NCBI GenBank assembly: GCA_963808215.1
Contig: CAWEEY010000012.1
Location: 20,409 to 84,408, forward strand
From: an uncultured Actinomycetota bacterium
GTDB lineage: Bacteria; Actinomycetota; Actinomycetes; Streptosporangiales; Streptosporangiaceae
Length of the DNA stretch: 64,000 bases
Direction of reading: 5' to 3'
Shown: one piece after another, positions 6,421-31,707 of the stretch
Layout: every line of letters starts with the position of its first letter
How positions within the stretch are numbered: position 1 is the first letter of the stretch
Notes under the pieces: generated by a model
The model's database searches: none
Told to the model about the DNA's origin: nothing
What the model saw: only the letters and a program-made list of their open reading frames with translations
Translations under genes and position numbers: made by a program

Positions 6421-6619
6421 CGCAGCTCCTCCCGGGGCCCTGGGCACGTCTTCCGGGCCATGGGCATATCAGAAGCGGGGTCGGCCACGGAGGCCTCAGT
6501 GCCAGGGTATTCCGGGCTGCGCGCGATCGGGATCGCCTGGCCGCCAGCTCATGCAGAACCCATGCACAGTCCAGACCCTGACCCATGCACGGGCCAGACC
6601 CTGGCGGGCCAGCGCAGCG

Positions 6620-7819
6620 TCAGCCGGCTGCTGGCGGATGGTCCGGCCGGCCGCGTACCAGCGCGGTCAGCAGGTGACGCGCCGGACCGACGCCGATGAG
6701 GGTCGCCAGGCAGATGGCGGCGAGCAGCGCGTATGGCACGAAATCGGTTGTGGCCTGTGCAATCGCCCCACCCCCTGCCGCCGCTATGGCCTGGCCGCTA
6801 GCCCAGGCCAGGTTGCCCAGGCCGAATGCCAGGCCCTGATTGAGCTTGAGCTGGTCGGCACCACCGCTGAGCAGGGTCATTGCGGGCGTGAAGACCGTTC
6901 CGTAGGCCGGCATGCCGACGATCAGCAGAGCAATGAGCAGCGCCGCTGGCGTCAGCACCGGCGCCAGCAGGCTGACGATGACCGCCGCCGTCAGCGATAT
7001 CCGAATTGGCATCAGCGGGCCCCGGCGGTCGGCAAGCCGGCCGCTGAGCGGTGCCAGGCCGGTCTCGATCGCGGCCGAGGCGAGGAACGTGAACCCGATC
7101 AGCGGCGCACTGACGCCGAGCCCCCCGAGGCGCAGCGGTGCCAGCACGTCGATGACGCCGAACGCCAGGCCCGCCAGCATGGTCAGCCACATGCCTGCGC
7201 TAACGTTCACGTTCCGCAAGGCGGGCCAGGCAGCCCGCAGGCCCTGCGGCTCGCGCTCACGCGGGCTTGCCACTGCGAACGAGGCAATCATGAGCAGGCC
7301 GCCGGCCACCGCAGCGGCGGAGAAAGCCGGACCGGTCCCGACGCGGCTAGCGACCGCGCCGACGACCGGGCCCAGCAGCGCGCCACCCACGGCTGCGCCC
7401 ATGGCGGCGCCTATCAGCTCGCCGCGACGGGCGGGCGGAGCGGCGGTGGCCAGCCACGCCATCCCCGCCGCCCACGTGCAGGCACCGCCGAGCCCCTGGA
7501 CGAAGCGGGCAGCATCCAGGATGGCCGGTGCCGACGCCCAGCCGAAAACGAAGGTGGAGGCGATCATCAGCAGCAGGCCGAGCAACACCACCGCGCGGTC
7601 GCCGATACGGGCCACCAGGACGCCGCCCGGAAGCGCACCGACAAGCGTGCCGAGCGGATAGGCGGCTACCAGGATGCCTGCCCCGGCTTTCGTCAGCCCG
7701 TCGACGCGCGCGTAGTGCGGCAGCAGGGGCGTCAGCGCGGTGAAGAAGATCGTGTCCACCAGGACCAGGGCGCAGACGAACAGCAACAGCGCCCGGAGCC
7801 GGGCCGGCAACTTCGGCAT
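6620..7819 (-). CDS. MFS transporter
   Basis: Start MPKLPARL at 7819, in frame within ORF 6620..8368. About 12 TM helices with typical MFS loop motifs. The upstream 180 codons of the ORF are Ala/Pro-rich and non-coding-like. Confidence 0.85.
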
Positions 7820-10857: not shown

Positions 10858-13800
10858 GTCGAACTGCGTCTCGCCGGTCCGTTCGGAGTAATGAGCGACG
10901 GCGCCGAACTGGTTGCGCACCAGATCGGCAGCCGCAAATCTCGCCTGCTACTGAAGCTGCTCGCGGCGGCCCGGCCCGCGCTGCTGAGCTGCGACCAGAT
11001 AGCCGAGGTGCTCTGGGATGGCGCGCCGCAGCCTGGCGCCGACCGAAACATTGCATCACTGATCAGCAGGCTCCGCGCAGTCCTCGGTGCCGACATCATC
11101 GAGGGCGGCAGGACCGGTTACCGGCTCGGTGACGAGCCAGCCGTTTCAGTCGATCTGGATATCGCGGCGCGCCTGTGCGATCAGGCGGAGCGCAAGCTCG
11201 CTTCCGCCCCCGCCGTTGCGCTGGCTGCCGCGGGCCGGGCGGCCGAGTTGCTCGGCGATGGGGTGGCGATCGCGGACGAGCCGTACGCGGACTGGGCGGA
11301 CGTCGCGCGCCAGCGGCTCAGCACGCAGCTGCGGCGAGCGCGGCTGACAGCGGCGCAGGCGGCCCTGGCGACCGGCGACCCGGAACAGTCCGCGCGTTAC
11401 GCCGAGGCGGCGATCGCAGCCGACGGCCTGGACGAGCCGGCGCACCGCCTGTACATGTCGGCGGTCGCGGCGAGCGGCGAGCACGCGCGGGCGCTGCTTA
11501 TTTATGAGGCGCTCCGGGAGCGCCTCGCGGCCGAGCTCGGGACGGATCCGTCGCCACCGACCCGTGACCTGCATCTGGCCATCCTGCGCGAGGAACCCCG
11601 GGCGACGGCACACGGGCCGGGAACGGGGCGGCAGGCCGAACTGCCGCCAGCTTCGGCGCGGCCGCCTAGAGGAGCTGCCGGGGCCAGTGCTCGTCGGCCG
11701 CGCACGCGAGGTCGCGGAGCTGCGCGCAGCCTGGAGCCGGGCCGCGGCAGGCGAGCCGAGTGTCGTAATGATCGTCGGCGAGGCCGGGATCGGCAAGACG
11801 GCGCTGGCCGAGCTCATCGCGGCCGAGGCAGCTGGGGACGGCGCAACCGTACTCAGAACTCGCTGCTACGAGACCGAGCGCTCACTGTTCCTGCAGCCGA
11901 TCGTCGAGGCACTGGATCCCGTTGTCAGCCGGATGTCCGCGGCTGAGCTGCGGGACATGCTCGGCCAGCACGTCGCTGCGGCGGCTGCGGTCCTGCCGAC
12001 GGCGGCTGACCTGCTCGGCCCCCTGCCGCCTGACCACGGCACCGCTGAGATCGAGCGAAGGCGAGCCTTCGACGCTCTGACCACTCTGCTGCGCGCTCTG
12101 GCCCGCCGCCATCCCGTGCTGCTTGTCGTGGACGACCTCCAGTACGCCGGCCAGTCGACCGTCGAGCTCCTGCACTTCCTCGGCCGCCGGCTGTCGGGCT
12201 CCCGGCTGCTGGTCGTGTTCACGGTGCGAGCCGAGTACTCAGCCGACGTCGGGGCCGCGCTCGAAGCGGTCGCCGTGCCGCTCGAGGTCGGTCCGCTGGA
12301 TCGCGACGCCGTGGCCAAGCTAGCCAGCGACGCCGGCCAGGGCTCACTCGCCGCCGACATCCTGCACCGCACGCGCGGCCACACGCTGTTCGTGGTGGAG
12401 GTTCTGCGAGCGTTGCGCGGCGGGGAGGAGGGCGTGCCCTCGTCCCTGCGCGCGACGGTCGTCGCACGCGTGCGCCGGGCCGGAGCGCCAGTCGAGGCGG
12501 CACTGCGAGCCGCCGCCGTGCTCGGCAGCGCAGTCGACCCGCTGATGCTGGGCGCGCTGCTGGGCCTGACCACGGCGGCTGCTGTCGAGCGGTGCGAGCA
12601 GGCCCTGTCGGCCCGCCTGCTCGTCGTAAGCGGGCGGCACTACGAGTTTGCCAACGACCTCATCCGCGAGGTCATGTACTCGACCACGCCCGAGCCAACC
12701 CGGCTGGCCTATCACCGCGGGGCCGCCGATCTGCTGACTGCCCAGCCCGAGGCGCTCGCCGAGCACGCGGCCGCGTGCGGCGACTGGCAGCGGGCGGCCC
12801 GCGCCTGGCTGGTCGCCACCGAAACGGCCATGCGGCGGTTCGCGGCATCCGACGCGGCGCTGCTGGCCACCAAGGCACTGGACGCGGCCGACCGCGCAGG
12901 CGCGGCCGAGGTCGCCGTCCGAGCCCAGATCGCACGCGGCCATGCGCATGAGATTATGGGCGACCACCGGGCCGCACTCGCAGACTTCACGGCAGGCGCG
13001 GACCAGGCCCGCGCGATTGGGGACCGGCGCCAGGAGATGTACGCGATGCGCGAACTCGGCGGTGATACGCCAGTCGCCCTCGGTCTCCCGATCACGTTCT
13101 GCGAGTCCCACCTGGCGGCCGGCCTGCGGATCGCCGAGTCGCTCGGTGACCGCGGCACCGAGGCGGACCTGCTCAGCCGTCTCGCGATCGTTGCCGGCAA
13201 CCGGTTCCAGTTCGACGCCGCGCTGAATCTCGGGCGTCGCGCGGTCGCGGCCGCGAGGGCGACCGCCGACGAGCACGCTCTCATCACAGGTCTGGACGGG
13301 CTTAAGGGCGCCTACCTAAATGTCGGCGACGCAGCCAGCCTCGGCCCGCTGCTGGCGGAACTCTTGCCGGTGGCTGCAGCGGCACGGCGACCTGGTGCAT
13401 GTTCAGTGGGCCGAGTTCGACTCGGCGTTCCTGGCGTTCGCGGCCGCGGACTGGGAAACGGCGGAGGCACGGATCCAGGCGGCATTCTGACGAACCGTCG
13501 CAGTGGCTATCCCTCCTGGGCTGGCTTGTACGCCGCGCACCTCGGCCTCATCGCCAGGCTGCGCGGCCGTGATGCGGACGCTATCCAGGTCGGCCGGAAC
13601 GCGCTAGCTATCGCCGACCAGCACGGTCACAGCTGGTCGATCGCGGTCGCGTCGGCCGCGCTCGGCTCGACGCTGCTGGTGGCCGGGGCAGCGGACGAGT
13701 CAACCGCATTGTTCGAGCACGGCCTCAGTGCAGCTGAGACAGACGGAACCGAGTCCTATGTGCTGCGCTGCCTGGCCCCGCTCGCCTACGTAACGCGTTC

Positions 13801-24282: not shown

Positions 24283-24480
24283 CCGCGCCATTGTGCTCGG
24301 GCCAAGACGACGGCCTCGACACGGGCCGCGCCGCCCTGGTCGAGCAGGCAGCCAGCAACAGCGTCGAGCTGAGTGCCGGTCGTGCAGACGTCGTCTATCA
24401 ACACGACAGTCTCAACGTGGATCCGGACGGATTCCCTGACGGCAACCACAAGGCGCCGGTCAAAGCACTGTCGAGGTAGC
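24279..24480 (-). pseudogene. Truncated C-terminal remnant of a ComF-type phosphoribosyltransferase
   Basis: The minus strand reads ...VVLIDDVCTTGTQLDAVAGCLLDQGGAARVEAVVLARAQWRG*. About 70 nt are near-identical to 26420-26495. There is no start codon, and it begins right after the stop of the upstream gene. Confidence 0.6.
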
Positions 24481-25041
24481 TCAGCCGCAGTCGAGGACGC
24501 CGTAGAGATACCAGCCGGGGTTCAGCGCGGGAGCGATCAGCATCTTGGACGCGCCGTGACCTGACTGGTGCAGGCTGGCTGGGTAGTCGTGCCTGAAGTA
24601 GCAGATGTAGTCGCCACGACCGCTATCGAGCGTGCAATACCGCAGCTGGAGGTTCACCGCCTCCGATCGCATCTGCATCAGCTCGCGGTAGGACCCCGGC
24701 GTCGTCACGGCGTGCAGCGCCGCGGCGTCATGCCCGTTGTAGGCGCCGGCCAGGTAGATCATCGCCGAAGCCGGGGACCTGAAGCGCGGCCCGGTGTAGG
24801 CCGAGGCGGCAGGCGTCGACGTGCTGCCCGACGGGGAGGCCGCTCCCGGCGAAGCGGACACACTACTGACCGGACGCGTTGCCTGTGACTGCCGGGCTAC
24901 GACCTCCGTCGCGGATCGCGTGACCGCATGCGAACGGGCAGGTGCGGCTTGATCCCGCGAAGCCAGTCCGCATCCGGTTGCGGCGCTGACAAGTCCGGCG
25001 GCTAGACCCAAGAGTGCCAATCCTCGCAACGTGCTGTTCAT
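24481..25041 (-). CDS. Putative lipoprotein
   Basis: MNSTLRGLALLGLAAGLVSAATGCG signal peptide and lipobox. Ser/Pro/Ala-rich linker. Confidence 0.7.
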   Translation of the reverse strand: MNSTLRGLALLGLAAGLVSAATGCGLASRDQAAPARSHAVTRSATEVVARQSQATRPVSSVSASPGAASPSGSTSTPAASAYTGPRFRSPASAMIYLAGAYNGHDAAALHAVTTPGSYRELMQMRSEAVNLQLRYCTLDSGRGDYICYFRHDYPASLHQSGHGASKMLIAPALNPGWYLYGVLDCG

Positions 25042-25389
25042 CGTTAGTCCTTCGCATCCGTAGGTCGCCAGTTGGCGTTAGATGCGATCGTGCACGCCCG
25101 GTCAGTTGTCGGCCAAGGGGAAGTCTCCCCAGATTGGGATGGGGTCCCCATGGTCGTCTTGACTGTCCGGGTAGCGGAGACCCGCGGCTGAAGACGTCCA
25201 CAAGATCCCGCCGAACCGCTTGCAGCCGACGCGCACCGGGTCATCATGACCGGCCACGTCGTCGGCAAGCTGGCGCTGATCCCGTAGCCCGCGGGCCTTG
25301 GCCGGGCCTCGCCGGTGCTGCCACACTGTGTCCCGACCGGGAGCGGACAAACCCGGACGCACGGGCTGAAGTGCGAGGAAGGGACGAGC

Positions 25390-26232
25390 ATGCAGGATCT
25401 CGCGGGCAAGGTCGCGGTCGTCACCGGCGCGGCCAGCGGCATCGGGCTGGCGGTAAGCAGGCGCCTTGGCGGCGATGGCATGCGGGTCATGATGGCCGAC
25501 GTGGAAGAGCCGGCCCTCGCGACCGCGGCGAAGATGCTTGCGGCAGAGGGAATCGAGGTGGCCGTGGAGCTGACCGACGTCAGCGACTCAGGGTCGGTTG
25601 ACGCGCTCGCCCGAGCAACACTCGCCCGCTTCGGCGCGGTGCACGTCGTCTGCAACAACGCGGGCGTGGCGGGCGGCGGACCGAGCTGGGACATCCCGCT
25701 GTCGACCTGGAACTGGGTCATAGGCGTCAACATGTTCGGCGTCGTCCACGGGATAAGGGCATTCCTCCCTCATCTCATCGCTCAGGGCGAGGGCCACGTC
25801 GTCAACACCGCGTCGGTCGCAGGGCTGCTCGCCGCGCCGTGGCTCGGCCCTTACAACGCGAGCAAGCACGCCGTCGTCGCGATATCGGAGTCCTTGTACC
25901 ACGAGCTGGCGGCCATCGGTTCGCCGGTCGGGGTATCGGTGCTCTGTCCCGGCTTCGTGCGGACCAGGATCGGCGAGGCCGACCGCAACCGGCCGACCAG
26001 GTTCGCTGTCGCTGCCGGTCAGGAAGAGCCAGTTCACGAGCAGCTCAGGGAGGCACTGGCCGCGGCGACCGAGGCCGGTAGCGACCCGGCGGTCGTCGCC
26101 ACGGCCGTTCGGGACGCCATCGTCGACGGCAGATTCTGGATCCTCACCCACCCCGAGTTCGGTCCGCGAATCGTCGCCAGATTCGGCAGGGCAGCCGATG
26201 GGCGCAACCCCAAGCAGGCCGGGCTCGCCTGA
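25390..26232 (+). CDS. SDR family oxidoreductase
   Basis: Start MQDLAGKVAVVTGAASGIG at 25390. NNAG and YNASK are present. Confidence 0.9.
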   Translation: MQDLAGKVAVVTGAASGIGLAVSRRLGGDGMRVMMADVEEPALATAAKMLAAEGIEVAVELTDVSDSGSVDALARATLARFGAVHVVCNNAGVAGGGPSWDIPLSTWNWVIGVNMFGVVHGIRAFLPHLIAQGEGHVVNTASVAGLLAAPWLGPYNASKHAVVAISESLYHELAAIGSPVGVSVLCPGFVRTRIGEADRNRPTRFAVAAGQEEPVHEQLREALAAATEAGSDPAVVATAVRDAIVDGRFWILTHPEFGPRIVARFGRAADGRNPKQAGLA

Positions 26233-26358: not shown

Positions 26359-27120
26359 CTATTTCGGCTGAGCGCTCGAAGCTAAGCGCCACGGGGCGCG
26401 AGCCAGGACTACCGCTTCGACGCGCGCTGCGCCGCCCTGGTCGAGCAGGCAGCCGGCAACCGCGTCGAGCTGCGTACCGGTCGTGCAGACGTCGTCGTAA
26501 ATCAGGATGAAGTTCCCGGCAGTCCGGCGCGGGTCCGGCACCATCAGAGCACTGCGCAGCTCATAACCGGTCGCCCGTTTCGACCAGGCCTGCGCGTCGG
26601 CTGACTTGAGCGTCGCCTGCGTCTTGATGATCGCGGGTGGCGACAAGGTATCGAACCGCCACCGCCCGGAAGCGTCGGCGCCCGCGGCGGCGGCCAGCAC
26701 AGCCTCCGCATGTCCGAACTCCTGGCCGCCGGGACCGGTGAAGCCCGGGTTCGCGACGATGAGCCCGGGCGGGTCGGTGGCCATGGTCTCGTCCAGCCAG
26801 GCCAGTAGCAGCCGGCCGAGCACGACCGCCCAGCTGCGGGTGCCGCGGTACTTGTAGGAATTGATGACCTGGCGCAGCGACCCGGACTGATAGCCGATCG
26901 CGTGGATCTTGCTGATGCGACGGCGCGGACTGCGGCACAGCTCGTTCGGGCATCCGCCCGCCGGATGGGGACGCTGCGAGCAAATCGGGCAGCAATCCGG
27001 GCCCGGCCGGCTTAACTGGCGGCTAGCGCAGGCGAGGCACATCCAGGCGGGCCCGTCACTGAAGTTCCCGCAGTCATGACACTCCGGGAACTCGGCCAGA
27101 CGCGGCAGCCAGTCGGTCAT
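26359..27120 (-). CDS. ComF family protein (double zinc-ribbon + type I phosphoribosyltransferase domain)
   Basis: Start MTDWLPRL at 27120. Cys clusters (CHDC...CLAC, CPIC...C..ELC). PRPP-binding loop ILIYDDVCTTGTQ. Confidence 0.8.
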   Translation of the reverse strand: MTDWLPRLAEFPECHDCGNFSDGPAWMCLACASRQLSRPGPDCCPICSQRPHPAGGCPNELCRSPRRRISKIHAIGYQSGSLRQVINSYKYRGTRSWAVVLGRLLLAWLDETMATDPPGLIVANPGFTGPGGQEFGHAEAVLAAAAGADASGRWRFDTLSPPAIIKTQATLKSADAQAWSKRATGYELRSALMVPDPRRTAGNFILIYDDVCTTGTQLDAVAGCLLDQGGAARVEAVVLARAPWRLASSAQPK

Positions 27121-27211
27121 AGTGCGACGACCGTAGCCGCTGGTGCCGACACTCGCCGTCAGCCAGACCCGACGCCGGTTGCCTCGCCTGCCCGTCGGAA
27201 GGGCGTGGTCG

Positions 27212-28712
27212 TTACCGCGGGCTTGCCCGCACGGGCAGGCCGGGCATCGCAGTTGGCACGAGGGCACTATCGCGAACCACGAAGCTGCCGTTCACCAGGA
27301 CGTGCCTGATTCCGCTTGACGGCCGGGTGGGCAGTGCGTAGGTCGCCTGGTCGCTAACTGTCGCCGCGTCAAAGACGACGATGTCGGCGTCGCAGCCCGG
27401 CTGCAGGCGGCCCTTGCGCCGCATCGCAGGAACGCGGTCCTGGAGCAGGCGCGCCGGAAGCAGGCTGCTGCGCCGCAGCGTCTCGGTCAGGCCAAGCGGG
27501 CCGCCGGCGCCCACAGGACCGCCGTGATCGGCGGCGAGCATCCGCAGTGCGCGGCTGAACGTGCCGAGGGTGCGCGGGTGCGTGATCGCACCCGCCGGGA
27601 GCGGCCACGTCATCTGGTCGGGAACGGGCCCTGGCCAGGTCAGCGGCATCGCGTCGCTGACCACTATCGAGTCAGGGAACACCAGCGACCGAAGCAGCAC
27701 GTCGAGATCGGCAGGGTCGTCCTCATCCAGCTGCCGGATGATCGCCAGGCCGCCCGGATCGGCCGCGCGCAGTTCCCGGAGCCTGGCCTCGTCAGCCACC
27801 CGCTCGCCTGTAGGCGCGTAGGTAAGGGAAGTCGGCGTCAGGTTGCGCTCGTGCAGCCGCTCGGGTGCAAGGAACGCCGCTCCTATGCCCGTCATCCCGG
27901 ACCCGTACGGATAAGCCTCGGTGGAGACGCGCGAACCAGCCGCCTGCGCGCGGCCGACGAGTTCCAGCACGCGGTCGATATGCCGATTCGAGGTGCTGTT
28001 GACGTGGCAGTAGTGCATCTGCGCGCCTGTCTCGGCGGCAGCGCGGACAATCTCCTCGGCGCCGTCGACAAGCGCATCCGGCGCCAGCTCGATCAGGTCG
28101 CGTGCGTGCGTGAAGGTCGGGACGTCTGCCTGCGCGGCCAGCGCGGCGACCCGCAAGTACTCATCGGGGTGCGTGCCAGGCGCGTAGCCCACCATCACGC
28201 CGATACCGAGCGCGCCGTCAGCCAGGTCGGCGGCGAGCCGGGTCAGGATGGCGCTGACCTGGCCGGGCGTGGCGGAACCCTGCCAGGCCGGTGTCGCGAT
28301 GTTGGCCAGGAACGTGTCGATCCGGCCGTCGAGGGCGACGCCGCCGACGGCCTCCATCCGGGCGAGCGCCCAGGATGCTGCGAAGCCGTAATTGACGGGG
28401 CGGCCCTCGGCCTTCGCGCGCTCGTAGGCGGCGGCTACCGGGGCGGCCCCGGCCTCGAGCTCGAGCGCGGTCGTAACCCCGTCGAGCGCGCGGAGCCGGA
28501 GGCCGGCCACATCAGCGGTATGGCTGTGCAGGTCGATGAACCCTGCCGTCACCACGTGCCCTGCGACGTCGACGTCCACTCTGGCCGCGCGGAAGCGCGG
28601 TCCCCACCTCGGCGATCTGACTGCCGGTGACGGTTACATCCCGGATCTCGTCCAGGCCCGTCTCAGGGTCGATGACGCGTCCGCCGCGCAGGACGATCTC
28701 AGGACTGGTCAC
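27212..28712 (-). CDS. N-acyl-D-amino-acid deacylase (D-aminoacylase) family amidohydrolase, frame broken near 28585
   Basis: GTG at 28712 (VTSPEIVLRGGRVIDPETG) in ORF 28512..28853. GFIDLHSH and the rest are in ORF 27212..28579. Confidence 0.8.
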
Positions 28713-29040
28713 GTTGCTGCACTCCGCTAACTCGCCGGCCGGTCGCGGCCGAGCGCGCCGCTGTGGCGTTGATCGAGGCAGCCACAGCGTGAGCGAGCGT
28801 CCGGTATTGCTCCTGCGTGATCTCTCCCCGGTCGTATGCCCCGGTAACGTCATCGAACGAGCCGGCTATGTCGGGCTCCGGATCGCGCTGGGCGGCAGCA
28901 GCGAGCTCCAGGTACGTTCGGGGTTCCGGCACTGCTGGGTCTGCCCAGGGTCGCTCGCGGAAGCGCAGTGCCACCTGGTCAAGGTTCATTGAGCCTGACC
29001 GCAAGGCTGCGATCAGGTCACTTACCTCAGTGCTGCTCAT
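28699..29040 (-). CDS. Small hypothetical protein (113 aa) translationally coupled to the zeta-toxin-like gene
   Basis: The ATG at 29040 overlaps the upstream stop (ATGA at 29037-29040). Its 3' end overlaps the amidohydrolase start by 14 nt. Confidence 0.6.
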   Translation of the reverse strand: MSSTEVSDLIAALRSGSMNLDQVALRFRERPWADPAVPEPRTYLELAAAAQRDPEPDIAGSFDDVTGAYDRGEITQEQYRTLAHAVAASINATAARSAATGRRVSGVQQRDQS

Positions 29041-30059
29041 CCATCGTCCTGTCTGCGCCATAGTCGACCGCCGACCGCGACGAGAACAGCGGCTCGGTCG
29101 TCCACCGAGTTGTCATACAGCGCCCAGGAGTCGAACCGGTCCTTGACGCTCTCGAAGTTCGCGCGATTCTTGTTACCCCAGATCTCATCGGCCTGCGAAA
29201 GTATCACTTCAGCAGGAACACACCGGCCGCCCATGCCGTTGCCTGCCCGATATGCGTCGTGATCGTTCCGGTGCCGAGCGTCCGTCCTCCTGACGCTGAC
29301 CTCAACTGGCACGTCGACAAACAAGCCTTCGATCCGCGAGTACCCGGCGCCCCGCAAGAAGTCGATGCGTTCACCGGCAGATGCATCCGTTGACATCGTG
29401 ATGTCCCAGATCACGTTCTTGCCGTCAGCGTGAGCCCGACGCGCAAACCGCTTAGCGATGTGGGAAGCCTCCTCGTGGACCAGATCAGACGCCTCCATGG
29501 GAGATAGTCCCTCGACTAACGGGACGAGGCCCCGGCTGGCCATCTGTTGCTTGATGCCATCCGGATTGATCATTAGATATCTGGACAGGTCGATGCCGGC
29601 GTGACTTGTCAGCACCGTCGTCTTGCCCGCGCCAGACAGGCCGCCCGCAACGATGGCCCGGCGTTCGCTTGGCACATCTGCTGCGGCCGCATACATGTCC
29701 GCGATGATCGAGTCATGCACAGCGTTGCGCTCGTCCGTCCACACTCGTCGCCTGGCGTCCGTCGTGTAGTGGCGGTTCGTCGCCAGACCCGCATCGACGG
29801 CGTGGCCTAAGCGGACCTTGACGTCGGCAACGTGCTGGGCGTGCTCGGCGTCGGTTAACGGGCGAACGCGGTCAGCCTCATGGCGCTCTCTGCTGTCGCG
29901 CGGCTTTGTGTCGCGCGGCGACTCGGCCCGATCGAGGTCAACGTACTGTGGCGAAGACGGATGGCCATGTGGTAGCTGATCCAATCGCCGCTCCAGATCC
30001 GGAGCAACTCTGTCGGGCCAGCGCTCAGCCAGGTCCATCTTGGAATCAGCAACGGCCAT
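29037..30059 (-). CDS. Zeta-toxin family P-loop kinase-like protein with an N-terminal extension (HPSSP motif)
   Basis: Start MAVADSK at 30059 after GGAGGG. Walker A GGLSGAGKTT. Zeta-like downstream blocks (INPDG, NVIWDITMS). GC is lower than the flanks (31/60 over 29161-29220). Confidence 0.8.
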   Translation of the reverse strand: MAVADSKMDLAERWPDRVAPDLERRLDQLPHGHPSSPQYVDLDRAESPRDTKPRDSRERHEADRVRPLTDAEHAQHVADVKVRLGHAVDAGLATNRHYTTDARRRVWTDERNAVHDSIIADMYAAAADVPSERRAIVAGGLSGAGKTTVLTSHAGIDLSRYLMINPDGIKQQMASRGLVPLVEGLSPMEASDLVHEEASHIAKRFARRAHADGKNVIWDITMSTDASAGERIDFLRGAGYSRIEGLFVDVPVEVSVRRTDARHRNDHDAYRAGNGMGGRCVPAEVILSQADEIWGNKNRANFESVKDRFDSWALYDNSVDDRAAVLVAVGGRLWRRQDDG

Positions 30060-30226
30060 GCTGACTTCCCTCCGGCGCCTGCTGCGATTGGAGTGACAGC
30101 AGTAGACGATAGGTCCATCACGGCGCCAATTCATCCTGGTCTGCGCAATAGTTGCTGGCGTTGACAAAGCGGCAGATCAGGCCGCGCCGCCGGAAACGAC
30201 CACCGAACTCCGGCCTCGCTGAGACG

Positions 30227-31707
30227 ATGGACGTCGTGCCGAGTGCCCGGCGTCCGATGCCCCGAAGTCGCAGCCCGCATCTGTTCGTGGTGCCTGACGA
30301 CGCTCAGCCAGCACTGTGGGACAGCCGGGAGCTCCGGCGCCTGGCCCGGCTTCGCCAGCTCGCACTCGACACGGGCGCGCCAGAAGAGGCAATCCGGCTG
30401 ATCGAGAGTGCCGCGACCGCGGACGAGGCCATGGCGGAGCTCGTCACGGCCGGACTGGTTCCTGACGAGCCGGATTCCTTCGAGGGCATGTTGTCGTGGT
30501 TCACGCCGCTGCTCGAGCCCGGCTGTGATCAGGTTGATGCCGAGGTCTGCGGCGGAGAGTTCGTCGGCGAACTGCGCCGTGCAGGCCCGGCCGACGCGGA
30601 CGTAAGCGAGGTCCTGAGCAACGTGCTCGAGCACCTGATCGAGTACGAGAGCCCAGAGGCGCTTGCCATGGCGCGGATCCTGGCGGCAGTCGGCCCGCCC
30701 GAAGTACGGGCGATCGCCGCGGACACAGCGAACCGCATGGTTGCGGGCGGACGGACGGACATGCCGTGGTCGGCCGGCCTGGGGCGGCCACGGCCGGGGC
30801 CGTGCTTCGGCTATGCCGACATCTACGGTGACCAGCGCTCGATCGTCGTCGTGTTCAGCTACGCGCGCAAGAAGCACGCCGTCGTCGTGCTGGTCGACTA
30901 TCTGCTCGGCGGCGGGATCAAGGACTGTTACCTGGTCGAATACTCGAGCAGGCTCCGCGACGAGTACCGCAAGGCGGGCGCCGACCCGGACCTGAGATTC
31001 AGCGACCTGGATGCCGAGACGGCCCGCGGGATTCTCGAGGAGGCATTGTCCAGGGACCCCTGCCCGGTCGAGCCTGACCAGATACAGGGCGTCGAGAACT
31101 ACATTGACCTGCTTCGTGCCCGTGTCGAGGTGCTCCCACGCCGCACGCGCTGCAACCGGGACACCGGCCACCCGGACAGCGGCCGCTGCGTCAACCACGG
31201 GCGCGCGAGGCAAGCGGCCGTCCGCGCGGAGGAATGTGCACCGGCTGAAGGTCACGCTGCGCGGCACCAAGCCATCCATCTGGCGACGGTTCGAGGTGCC
31301 GTCGGACATCCCGCTCGCCCGGCTCCACACGGTTATCCAGCTCGGCTTCGGATGGCAGAACTCGCACGTGTGGGTGTTCGAAACACCTGCCGGACGCTTC
31401 GGCAGACATGACCCTGAGCTCGAGATCCGCAGTGCCGCGAGCAAGAAGCTGTCCGCGGTGGCCGACTGGCCGGCCGACAAGATCCGGTACGACTACGACT
31501 TCGGTGCCGGCTGGGAGCACGACGTCGTCGTAGAAGCCGTCCAGCCAGCTGAACCCGGCGTTGCCTACCCCCGGTGCACGGCTGGCAGGCGAGGAGTACC
31601 GCCTGGGGACAGCGGCGGCAACCCGGGCGACGACCAGGACAACTTCGAGCCTCGATGCCACTAACGATGCCCTGGCCACGATCTCGAAGGTGCTCGTCAG
31701 GCGCTAA
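30227..31707 (+). CDS. Protein with an unknown ~330-aa N-terminal domain and a C-terminal pRiA4b ORF-3-like domain; at least 2 frame changes
   Basis: ORF 30152..31411 carries the N-terminal domain. ORF 31011..31664 contains LKVTLRGTKPSIWRRFEVPSDIPLARLHTVIQLGFGWQNSH...YDYDFGAGWEH...YPRC. The last ~18 aa (LDATNDALATISKVLVRR*) are in a third frame. Confidence 0.7.

Follow-up and report, generated by a model that had tools for sequence, protein, structure and literature searches.

The window analysed here is a 64,000-nucleotide stretch of contig CAWEEY010000012.1 from an uncultured Streptosporangiaceae bacterium, and the region in question comprises four co-directional minus-strand genes at 26359-30059, which encode a zeta-type P-loop kinase, a small helical protein, an amidohydrolase and a ComF-like phosphoribosyltransferase (PRTase). 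We found that these genes make up two independent pairs, kinase with small protein and amidohydrolase with ComF-like protein, which adjoin through a variable slot in a conserved chromosomal block. The first pair is probably a toxin-first cassette of a zeta/AvrRxo1-like toxin and its antitoxin (or immunity protein). A sequence-only reading of the region had taken the amidohydrolase and the PRTase for partners of the kinase, but the two pairs occur apart from each other in most of the loci that we collected, and since each pair is independent, the proposed four-gene system does not hold. The zeta superfamily itself is known; what is new is a large, uncharacterised toxin-first family of zeta-like kinases with a new partner.

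Strict pairing of the kinase with a small downstream gene

Kinase loci were collected by a profile scan with one genome taken per species, which yielded 79 loci flanked by as much as 10 kb of sequence, and the proteins of the window were located in them by tblastn. The related loci belong to metagenome-assembled genomes of uncultured Streptosporangiaceae and Actinomycetota, to Actinomadura and to Actinoallomurus. As a result, the small gene was found directly 3' of the kinase gene in 73 of 78 loci, and in 77 of 78 when tandem copies are counted: four of the five exceptions are tandem arrays (L009, L013, L021 and L065) in which every kinase has a small gene of its own, and in the fifth (L070) the small gene lies 1.7 kb downstream of the kinase. 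The kinase stop and the start of the small gene overlap by 4 nt in 36 of the 73 adjacent loci and are about 16 nt apart or less in most of the others; in the window, an ATGA at 29037-29040 joins the ATG of the small gene to the TGA of the kinase. Kinase and small gene are a strict pair, in toxin-first order. Of the co-localisation that the sequence-only reading had proposed to look for, that of the small protein with the kinase was borne out, whereas the amidohydrolase and the PRTase are not consistently found beside them.

The small gene is a real one; its homologues form 252 clusters and start at the same Met, an alignment of 25 sequences contains 14 invariant positions, and the AlphaFold2 (AF2) model consists of five helices at a pLDDT of 79.7. 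Apart from the small gene, all-against-all clustering of the flanking open reading frames, which is noisy owing to shadow reading frames in high-GC DNA, revealed no neighbour common to more than 27 of 80 loci. In a large group of actinobacterial zeta-type kinases, a partner of an unannotated family is thus strictly conserved downstream.

The cassette behaves as accessory DNA in a variable slot

When the window was compared by blastn with L085 and L084, the homology stopped at 30190 and resumed at 28718, so that a segment of 1,471 bp with the kinase and small genes stands in place of 58 bp in L085. Neither gene occurs within 9 kb in L084, L085 or L086, where the backbone proteins are 84-92% identical to those of the window and the genes follow the order nitroreductase, methyltransferase, PTH2, PRiA4_ORF3, amidohydrolase and ComF. 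The cassette has a GC content of 0.634, against 0.690 for the window, which is actinobacterial in character, and the GC content at third codon positions (GC3) is 0.72 in the kinase gene and 0.71 in the small gene, against 0.79-0.86 in all of the flanking genes, those of the amidohydrolase and ComF among them. The lower GC content that had been noticed in this setting is real, but it is confined to these two genes. Furthermore, the kinase is 54-65% identical among relatives, compared with 73-88% for the products of neighbouring genes, and at least four genomes contain two separate cassette loci. By its presence or absence between relatives, its low GC3 and its several copies per genome, the cassette behaves as accessory DNA.

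The 58-bp remnant in L085 includes a 15-nt match to kinase codons 2-6, about 3 standard deviations above shuffled sequences, one of which scored higher, and this match is a weak hint that the relatives lost the cassette. L093 has the same layout as the window, including the 14-nt overlap between the small gene and the amidohydrolase gene, together with a kinase that is only 57% identical, which indicates that the layout is old in part of the clade. The cassette was probably lost in L084-L086, and L093 is the better argument for its ancestral presence. When we looked for remnants in other kinase-free loci, we found a different gene in the slot instead. In L101, an unrelated gene of about 280 aa (6502-7340, minus strand) sits between PRiA4_ORF3 and the amidohydrolase gene, and its product looks to be of the glyoxalase/VOC type, as judged by eye from the sequence.

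The slot that the cassette fills lies between PRiA4_ORF3 and the amidohydrolase gene and is variable. Within the syntenic block the cassette takes two positions, either after an SNF2 gene (PRiA4-SNF2-kinase-small-amidohydrolase) or before it (PTH2-kinase-small-SNF2-amidohydrolase; L029, L033, L041, L046, L047 and L088). The SNF2-family helicase, 1,115-1,140 aa long, lies in the same slot of relatives (L002, 2428-5850; L088, 3966-7313), is fragmented in L001 and L005, and is missing from the window.

The amidohydrolase and ComF-like genes form an independent pair

Among the 79 kinase loci, 59 of which extend at least 8 kb downstream, the amidohydrolase lies within 10 kb of the kinase in only 26, and the remaining 53 have neither amidohydrolase nor ComF. 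In these 26 loci the amidohydrolase gene starts 350-5,617 nt from the kinase end; it follows directly after the small gene in about 13 of them, and elsewhere MarR, the 1,140-aa SNF2 helicase or other genes intervene. ComF was detected in 25 of the 26, the contig ending first in the last one, and PTH2 and/or PRiA4_ORF3 in 24, so these loci represent one syntenic chromosomal block.

A metagenome scan with a ComF profile afforded 80 further loci, 30 of which are informative, with at least 3.6 kb upstream of ComF. The amidohydrolase gene lies directly upstream of ComF in 25 of these 30, with gaps of about 65-260 nt, and a kinase is found upstream in only 8 of these 25; in the 17 kinase-free loci, PRiA4_ORF3 or PTH2 often abuts the amidohydrolase gene. 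In the kinase-free loci L084-L086 the amidohydrolase is 86-88% identical to that of the window, and the same three loci hold the closest relatives (85%) of the ComF-like protein, which is 67-87% identical among its top 120 clusters. Kinase with small protein and amidohydrolase with ComF are two independent pairs, and the second is part of the conserved backbone of an uncultured Streptosporangiales clade, not of the cassette; this backbone block includes a peptidase gene and the nitroreductase, methyltransferase, PTH2, PRiA4_ORF3, amidohydrolase and ComF genes. In this region, neither contiguity nor co-direction, nor even the overlap of reading frames, was a sign of a functional operon. The observations on the amidohydrolase-ComF pair come from 26359-28712 of the window and from the loci L084-L088, L093 and L094-L160.

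Profile searches on the frame-corrected proteins, which had been suggested along with the four-gene proposal, supported Zeta_toxin for the kinase and Amidohydro_1/3 for the amidohydrolase, and gave weak matches to Pribosyltran and ComF/GntX for the fourth protein. An end-to-end match of the amidohydrolase to NF006560/PRK09061 (622 bits) was obtained only with the frame-corrected protein of 499 aa. The ComF-like protein scored 40 bits against the NCBIfam model GntX (cut-off 304) and 29.5 bits against comF (cut-off 233.6), and the PRTase encoded by the fourth gene, Cys-rich at its N-terminus, is a distant ComF-like one and no equivalog. It has invariant Cys residues and a DDxCTTG motif, and we read the Cys-rich region, from the C-x2-C spacing and the invariant Cys residues, as a putative zinc ribbon.

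The kinase belongs to the zeta superfamily

The kinase matches Pfam Zeta_toxin (PF06414) with 55.8 bits against a cut-off of 22.3 (E 5.4e-15), residues 134-318 aligning with positions 17-197 of the 199-position profile, and all of the listed homologues carry PF06414 as well; AAA_33 is also matched. The Walker A motif is GGLSGAGKTT. Among 8,000 candidates scored, the homologues form 1,257 clusters at E ≤ 1e-5, and throughout the best 120 clusters identity is 54-65% and length is similar. Mean pLDDT in the AF2 model is 81.6, and residue blocks within 111-330 average at least 91. Residues 1-62 are largely of low confidence (pLDDT below 50 at 1-18 and 38-62, with a short helix at 20-27). The predicted architecture consists of a low-confidence or disordered N-terminus, a helical extension at about 63-125 and a core at 134-331.

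A Foldseek search with this model gave AvrRxo1-ORF1 as the best PDB match (4z8t_A, E 1.4e-8, 281 aligned columns). The top 12 matches are AvrRxo1, zeta and PezT, at a probability of 1.00 and target TM-scores of 0.5-0.62, and metabolic and polynucleotide kinases rank after these zeta-type toxins, at E 1e-4 or worse. PDB sequence searches with the kinase profile returned nothing meaningful even at E ≤ 10.

In an alignment of the window protein with 20 homologues, K146, D167, K170, D219, T221, R262 and R279 are invariant and T147 is conserved in at least 90% of the sequences. We compared the kinase profile by hhalign with a zeta sequence that we take to be that of pSM19035. Its numbering fits the residues described in PMC4938570. 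The hhalign probability was 90%, with the alignment ending at residue 242, and zeta K46, T47, D67 and K70 correspond to K146, T147, D167 and K170, the spacing being reproduced exactly; zeta E116 corresponds to D219. Among the residues that contact UDP-N-acetylglucosamine (UDP-GlcNAc) in zeta, T118 and T121 are kept as T221 and T224, E100 and R120 are changed to K203 and S223, and T128 has no confident alignment in the kinase. R262 and R279 match the lid arginines R158 and R171 of zeta by manual alignment only. The kinase is a member of the zeta superfamily, as its profile match, its motifs and the fold of its AF2 model agree, and with the zeta catalytic residues conserved on alignment the identification made from the nucleotide sequence stands.

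The N-terminal region, encoded at 29961-30059 of the window (residues 1-37), contains the conserved motif RLxxLPxGHPSSP, in which L22, R25, L26, H33 and P34 are invariant and GHPSSP forms residues 32-37; a search of the literature on HPSSP brought up nothing of relevance. The helical extension precedes the Zeta_toxin domain in 9 of 10 homologues scanned against Pfam. In three longer proteins, P0442 (1,587 aa), P0427 (962 aa) and P0447 (864 aa), the helical module and the zeta kinase lie at internal positions. A NUDIX domain follows the kinase in P0442, which hints at a nucleotide-diphosphate-linked substrate for this kinase branch. Residues 105-262 match the PHROG phrog_16619, a 'minor head protein' profile of 1,440 positions (positions 404-559, E 7.7e-9), so that some large phage virion proteins appear to embed a related kinase domain; a phage origin was not supported by the PHROGs search.

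Comparison with known systems

The family resembles a single characterised case, AvrRxo1-ORF1 and Arc1 (AvrRxo1-ORF2) of Xanthomonas oryzae pv. oryzicola, an experimentally demonstrated toxin-antitoxin pair in which the toxin gene comes first and a partner of about 100 aa is encoded downstream (PMC4938570). In AvrRxo1 the catalytic set of zeta is retained without the UDP-GlcNAc contacts, and UDP-GlcNAc is not phosphorylated (PMC4938570). Its substrate chemistry is the 3'-phosphorylation of NAD. As in AvrRxo1, the kinase of the window has an N-terminal helical extension ahead of the zeta core and keeps the catalytic Lys, Thr, Asp, Lys and Arg, and two of the UDP-GlcNAc contacts of zeta are changed. 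The order of the genes is likewise the same, with a helical partner of about 100 aa immediately downstream of the toxin gene (in the 73 adjacent loci and the tandem copies). However, similarity to AvrRxo1 was not detected at the sequence level, the two kinases are 17% identical when aligned by structure, the small protein has neither the KExFD...YExxYY motif of Arc1 nor a fold match to the Arc1 chain, and there is no type III secretion context here.

With epsilon/zeta of pSM19035 and PezAT of Streptococcus pneumoniae, the kinase shares the Zeta_toxin family and the fold (3q8x, 1gvn, 2p5t). The gene order is reversed, however, and the upstream gene is a divergently oriented PRiA4_ORF3 gene; since there is no upstream antitoxin and no homologue of epsilon or PezA, the cassette is not a canonical epsilon/zeta or PezAT system. 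It differs further in the replacement of the E100 and R120 contacts and in an extra N-terminal region of 130 aa with the GHPSSP motif.

Two mycobacterial pairs also combine a zeta/AAA_33-type kinase with an antitoxin that is neither epsilon nor PezA: the non-canonical PezAT Rv0366c-Rv0367c of Mycobacterium tuberculosis (PMC6362051) and the zeta-like pair of Mycobacterium sp. MHSD3 (PMC5728571). In these pairs the toxins are short (195 aa in MHSD3) and preceded by a ribbon-helix-helix (RHH)/ParD-like DNA-binding antitoxin, whereas the partner found here is downstream, helical and without RHH. Indeed, in the literature on actinobacterial zeta systems we found only short kinases with upstream RHH/ParD-like antitoxins. 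Surveys list many 'orphan' zeta/PezT toxins, about 18% of them in Actinobacteria (PMC10532202). The 2023 PezAT survey sought new antitoxins only upstream of such orphans (PMC10532202), so that a toxin-first family would count as orphan there and its partner would be missed. If the small protein were confirmed as an antitoxin, a set of these orphans would no longer count as such and the known antitoxin folds would gain a new one, and the question would arise which substrate this branch phosphorylates.

ShosTA, a system of the PRTase toxin ShosT and a DprA-like antitoxin, has the PRTase domain in common with the ComF-like protein. The PADLOC match to ShosT (9e-6) covers only the generic PRTase core, at residues 161-242 of the ComF-like protein; no DprA-like partner is present, and the ComF-like gene belongs to the highly conserved backbone and not to the variable genes of defence.

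A putative toxin-first cassette and its alternatives

We propose that the first pair (28699-30059) would act as a self-contained, translationally coupled module of the AvrRxo1/Arc1 type. By analogy with AvrRxo1/Arc1 and epsilon/zeta, the kinase may use ATP to phosphorylate a nucleotide-containing metabolite and thereby arrest growth, and the small protein, a candidate antitoxin or immunity protein, may bind to the kinase so that the nucleotide or substrate cleft is blocked. The substrate may not be UDP-GlcNAc, since the E100 and R120 contacts are replaced by K203 and S223. Co-transcription into the amidohydrolase gene, if any, would be a by-product of position. Strict coupling, presence or absence between relatives, tandem amplification, faster divergence and atypical composition all fit a conflict or addiction module.

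Several points weigh against this proposal, beginning with the fact that toxicity and neutralisation are argued from analogy. A search of the four proteins against PADLOC-DB v2 gave no significant defence-system match; the weak hits were PbeC (0.005) for the kinase and ShosT (9e-6) and PsyrT (0.007) for the generic PRTase core. Of the accessory or defence islet that had been suggested for this region, the accessory part is thus upheld by the presence or absence, GC3 and copy number of the cassette, but the defence part found no significant match. For the small protein, a fold search in the PDB gave a best match of E = 1.6 and none at E ≤ 0.001, so that it cannot be assigned to epsilon, PezA or Arc1, and similarity to any of the three was not detectable. 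No Pfam family was matched above threshold, the Arc1 motif KExFD(x25-27)(Y/L)ExxYY is absent from the alignment of 25 sequences, and we found no DNA-binding domain for autoregulation. The only Pfam hits of the small protein were below threshold (VbhA, itself an antitoxin, SHOCT, DUF1707 and GvpG). Lastly, the layout shared with L093 indicates that the cassette can be stably inherited over the long term, which also fits a housekeeping role.

Membership of the small protein in VbhA, SHOCT, DUF1707 or GvpG was rejected, since the hits are below threshold and read as short helix-turn resemblances; the matches to the first three reflect two helix-turn motifs of the type G-x-[IL/M]-[ST]-x-[DE]-[EQ].

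The AAA_33/zeta fold is also that of kinases which serve in metabolism, in salvage or in the modification of antibiotics. In a similar role, the kinase of the cassette could be non-toxic and act on small molecules or nucleotides, with the small protein as its accessory or regulatory subunit, a reading that we regard as unlikely while taking it as the most serious alternative. This would agree with the size of the family (54-65% identity across more than 100 clusters), the AAA_33 match, the retention of one chromosomal site across deep divergence in L093, housekeeping neighbours such as Ddl, HU and PntAB in L092, and a partner without an antitoxin-type DNA-binding domain. Against it stand the presence or absence of the cassette between near relatives, its tandem arrays of up to four units, its several copies per genome and a GC3 below that of the host genes. 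In structure, moreover, the kinase is closest to the three known zeta-type toxins and not to metabolic kinases, and strict pairing with a translationally coupled small protein is a hallmark of toxin-antitoxin and toxin-immunity systems.

It is quite improbable, in our view, that the pair instead consists of an effector, secreted or contact-dependent, and the matching immunity protein, of the polymorphic-toxin type. AvrRxo1 itself is a secreted effector (PMC4938570), the helical module and the zeta kinase recur inside the longer proteins P0427, P0447 and P0442, a related kinase is found within the 'minor head protein' PHROG of phages, and the tandem arrays look like those of toxin-immunity genes. 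Nevertheless, no domain for secretion or trafficking and no LXG/WXG domain can be recognised in the 340-aa kinase, disorder is predicted for its residues 1-62, and the loci examined show no genes of a secretion system close to the cassette.

The least probable alternative is a four-gene module in which the amidohydrolase and the ComF PRTase process or detoxify a nucleotide-sugar product of the kinase, or which serves as a defence islet. In its favour are the contiguous co-directional arrangement in the window, in about 13 of the 79 genome loci and, from other look-ups, in L087, L093 and L094, the 14-nt overlap of the small gene with the amidohydrolase gene (in L093 too) and the weak ShosT match. 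Co-occurrence refutes it in large part, since the second pair is missing from 53 of 79 kinase loci and the kinase from 17 of 25 loci of the second pair; against it are also the absence of the cassette from the closest relatives, the varying position and intervening genes, the different composition of the two pairs and the frameshift in the amidohydrolase gene of the window itself.

To return to the toxin-first cassette, we put forward, tentatively, a more specific form of it. The cassette may be the founding example of a large actinobacterial zeta-type branch of more than 1,200 clusters, with a new downstream antitoxin or immunity fold and a substrate other than UDP-GlcNAc, such as NAD or another nucleotide cofactor, and switched through its N-terminal RLxxLPxGHPSSP motif, for instance in phage defence or inter-strain conflict. 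Such a role would, if true, explain the tandem arrays and the variable slot.

Gene layout and disrupted genes

The four co-directional genes that had been read from the letters of the window are all there, with the overlaps and spacing as described (Table 1). A GGAGG Shine-Dalgarno sequence lies 8-10 nt ahead of the kinase ATG, the GTG of the amidohydrolase gene at 28712 is 14 nt within the small gene, and the ATG of the ComF-like gene at 27120 lies 91 nt past the amidohydrolase stop at 27212. A promoter and terminator scan found no promoters and one terminator-like site against 1.7 expected, a result that is uninformative owing to the high GC content, and no RNA element was supported by an Rfam search.

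Table 1. Positions of the genes, of the disruption and repeat in the window, and of tandem cassette arrays in related loci
Feature	Sequence	Positions	Strand	Remarks
Zeta/AvrRxo1-like P-loop kinase	Window	29037-30059	-	340 aa
Small helical partner protein	Window	28699-29040	-	113 aa
Amidohydrolase, PRK09061 (N-acyl-D-amino-acid deacylase-like) subfamily	Window	27212-28712	-	499 aa once frame-corrected
ComF-like protein, Cys-rich N-terminus and PRTase domain	Window	26359-27120	-	253 aa
Cassette of kinase and small genes, with kinase 5' leader	Window	28719-30189	-	1,471 bp
+1 frameshift in amidohydrolase gene	Window	28586-28589	-	Extra base in CCGCGCGGCC
Divergent PRiA4_ORF3-family gene at border of cassette slot	Window	30152-31664	+	Pfam PRiA4_ORF3, 1.4e-39
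Duplicated ComF 3' end, context outside cassette	Window	24285-24395	-	Direct repeat of 26386-26496
Tandem array	L021	555-12840		Four cassettes within 13 kb
Tandem array	L009	10001-12667		Two cassettes
Tandem array	L013	8589-11219		Two cassettes, one kinase frameshifted
Tandem array	L065	8832-11364		Two cassettes
Tandem array	L092	6605-9086		DDE transposase after second kinase

Two genes within 3 kb of each other, those of the amidohydrolase and PRiA4_ORF3, are disrupted in the window. The amidohydrolase gene extends over two frames, with the tblastn frame switch between 28590 and 28585, and relative to the window both L085 and L089, a close relative from a short-read assembly, have a one-base gap at CCGCGCGGCC. 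The public gene call on the contig is the 455-aa remainder of the protein. The frameshift reflects an error of assembly or else a mutation that inactivated the gene recently. The PRiA4_ORF3 gene is split between frame +2 (30290-31144) and frame +3 (31212-31619), as located by tblastn with the 521-aa orthologue of L085; its orthologues are 521-566 aa long, and about 59 nt of the linker are missing in the window.

The truncated ComF copy that had been noticed nearby proved real, with a tblastn match at 24285-24464 (65% over 60 aa). The direct repeat that duplicates the ComF 3' end is 111 nt long and 86% identical, and its downstream copy can still be translated, ending in ...DDVCTTGTQLDAVAGCLLDQGGAARVEAVVLARAQWRG*. 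Between the repeats lie about 2 kb, with an SDR gene at 25315-26232 (plus strand) and a lipoprotein-like reading frame at 24481-25041 (minus strand), an arrangement suggestive of an insertion through which the 3' end of ComF was restored. A similar ComF fragment is present in L088, at 10975-11094.

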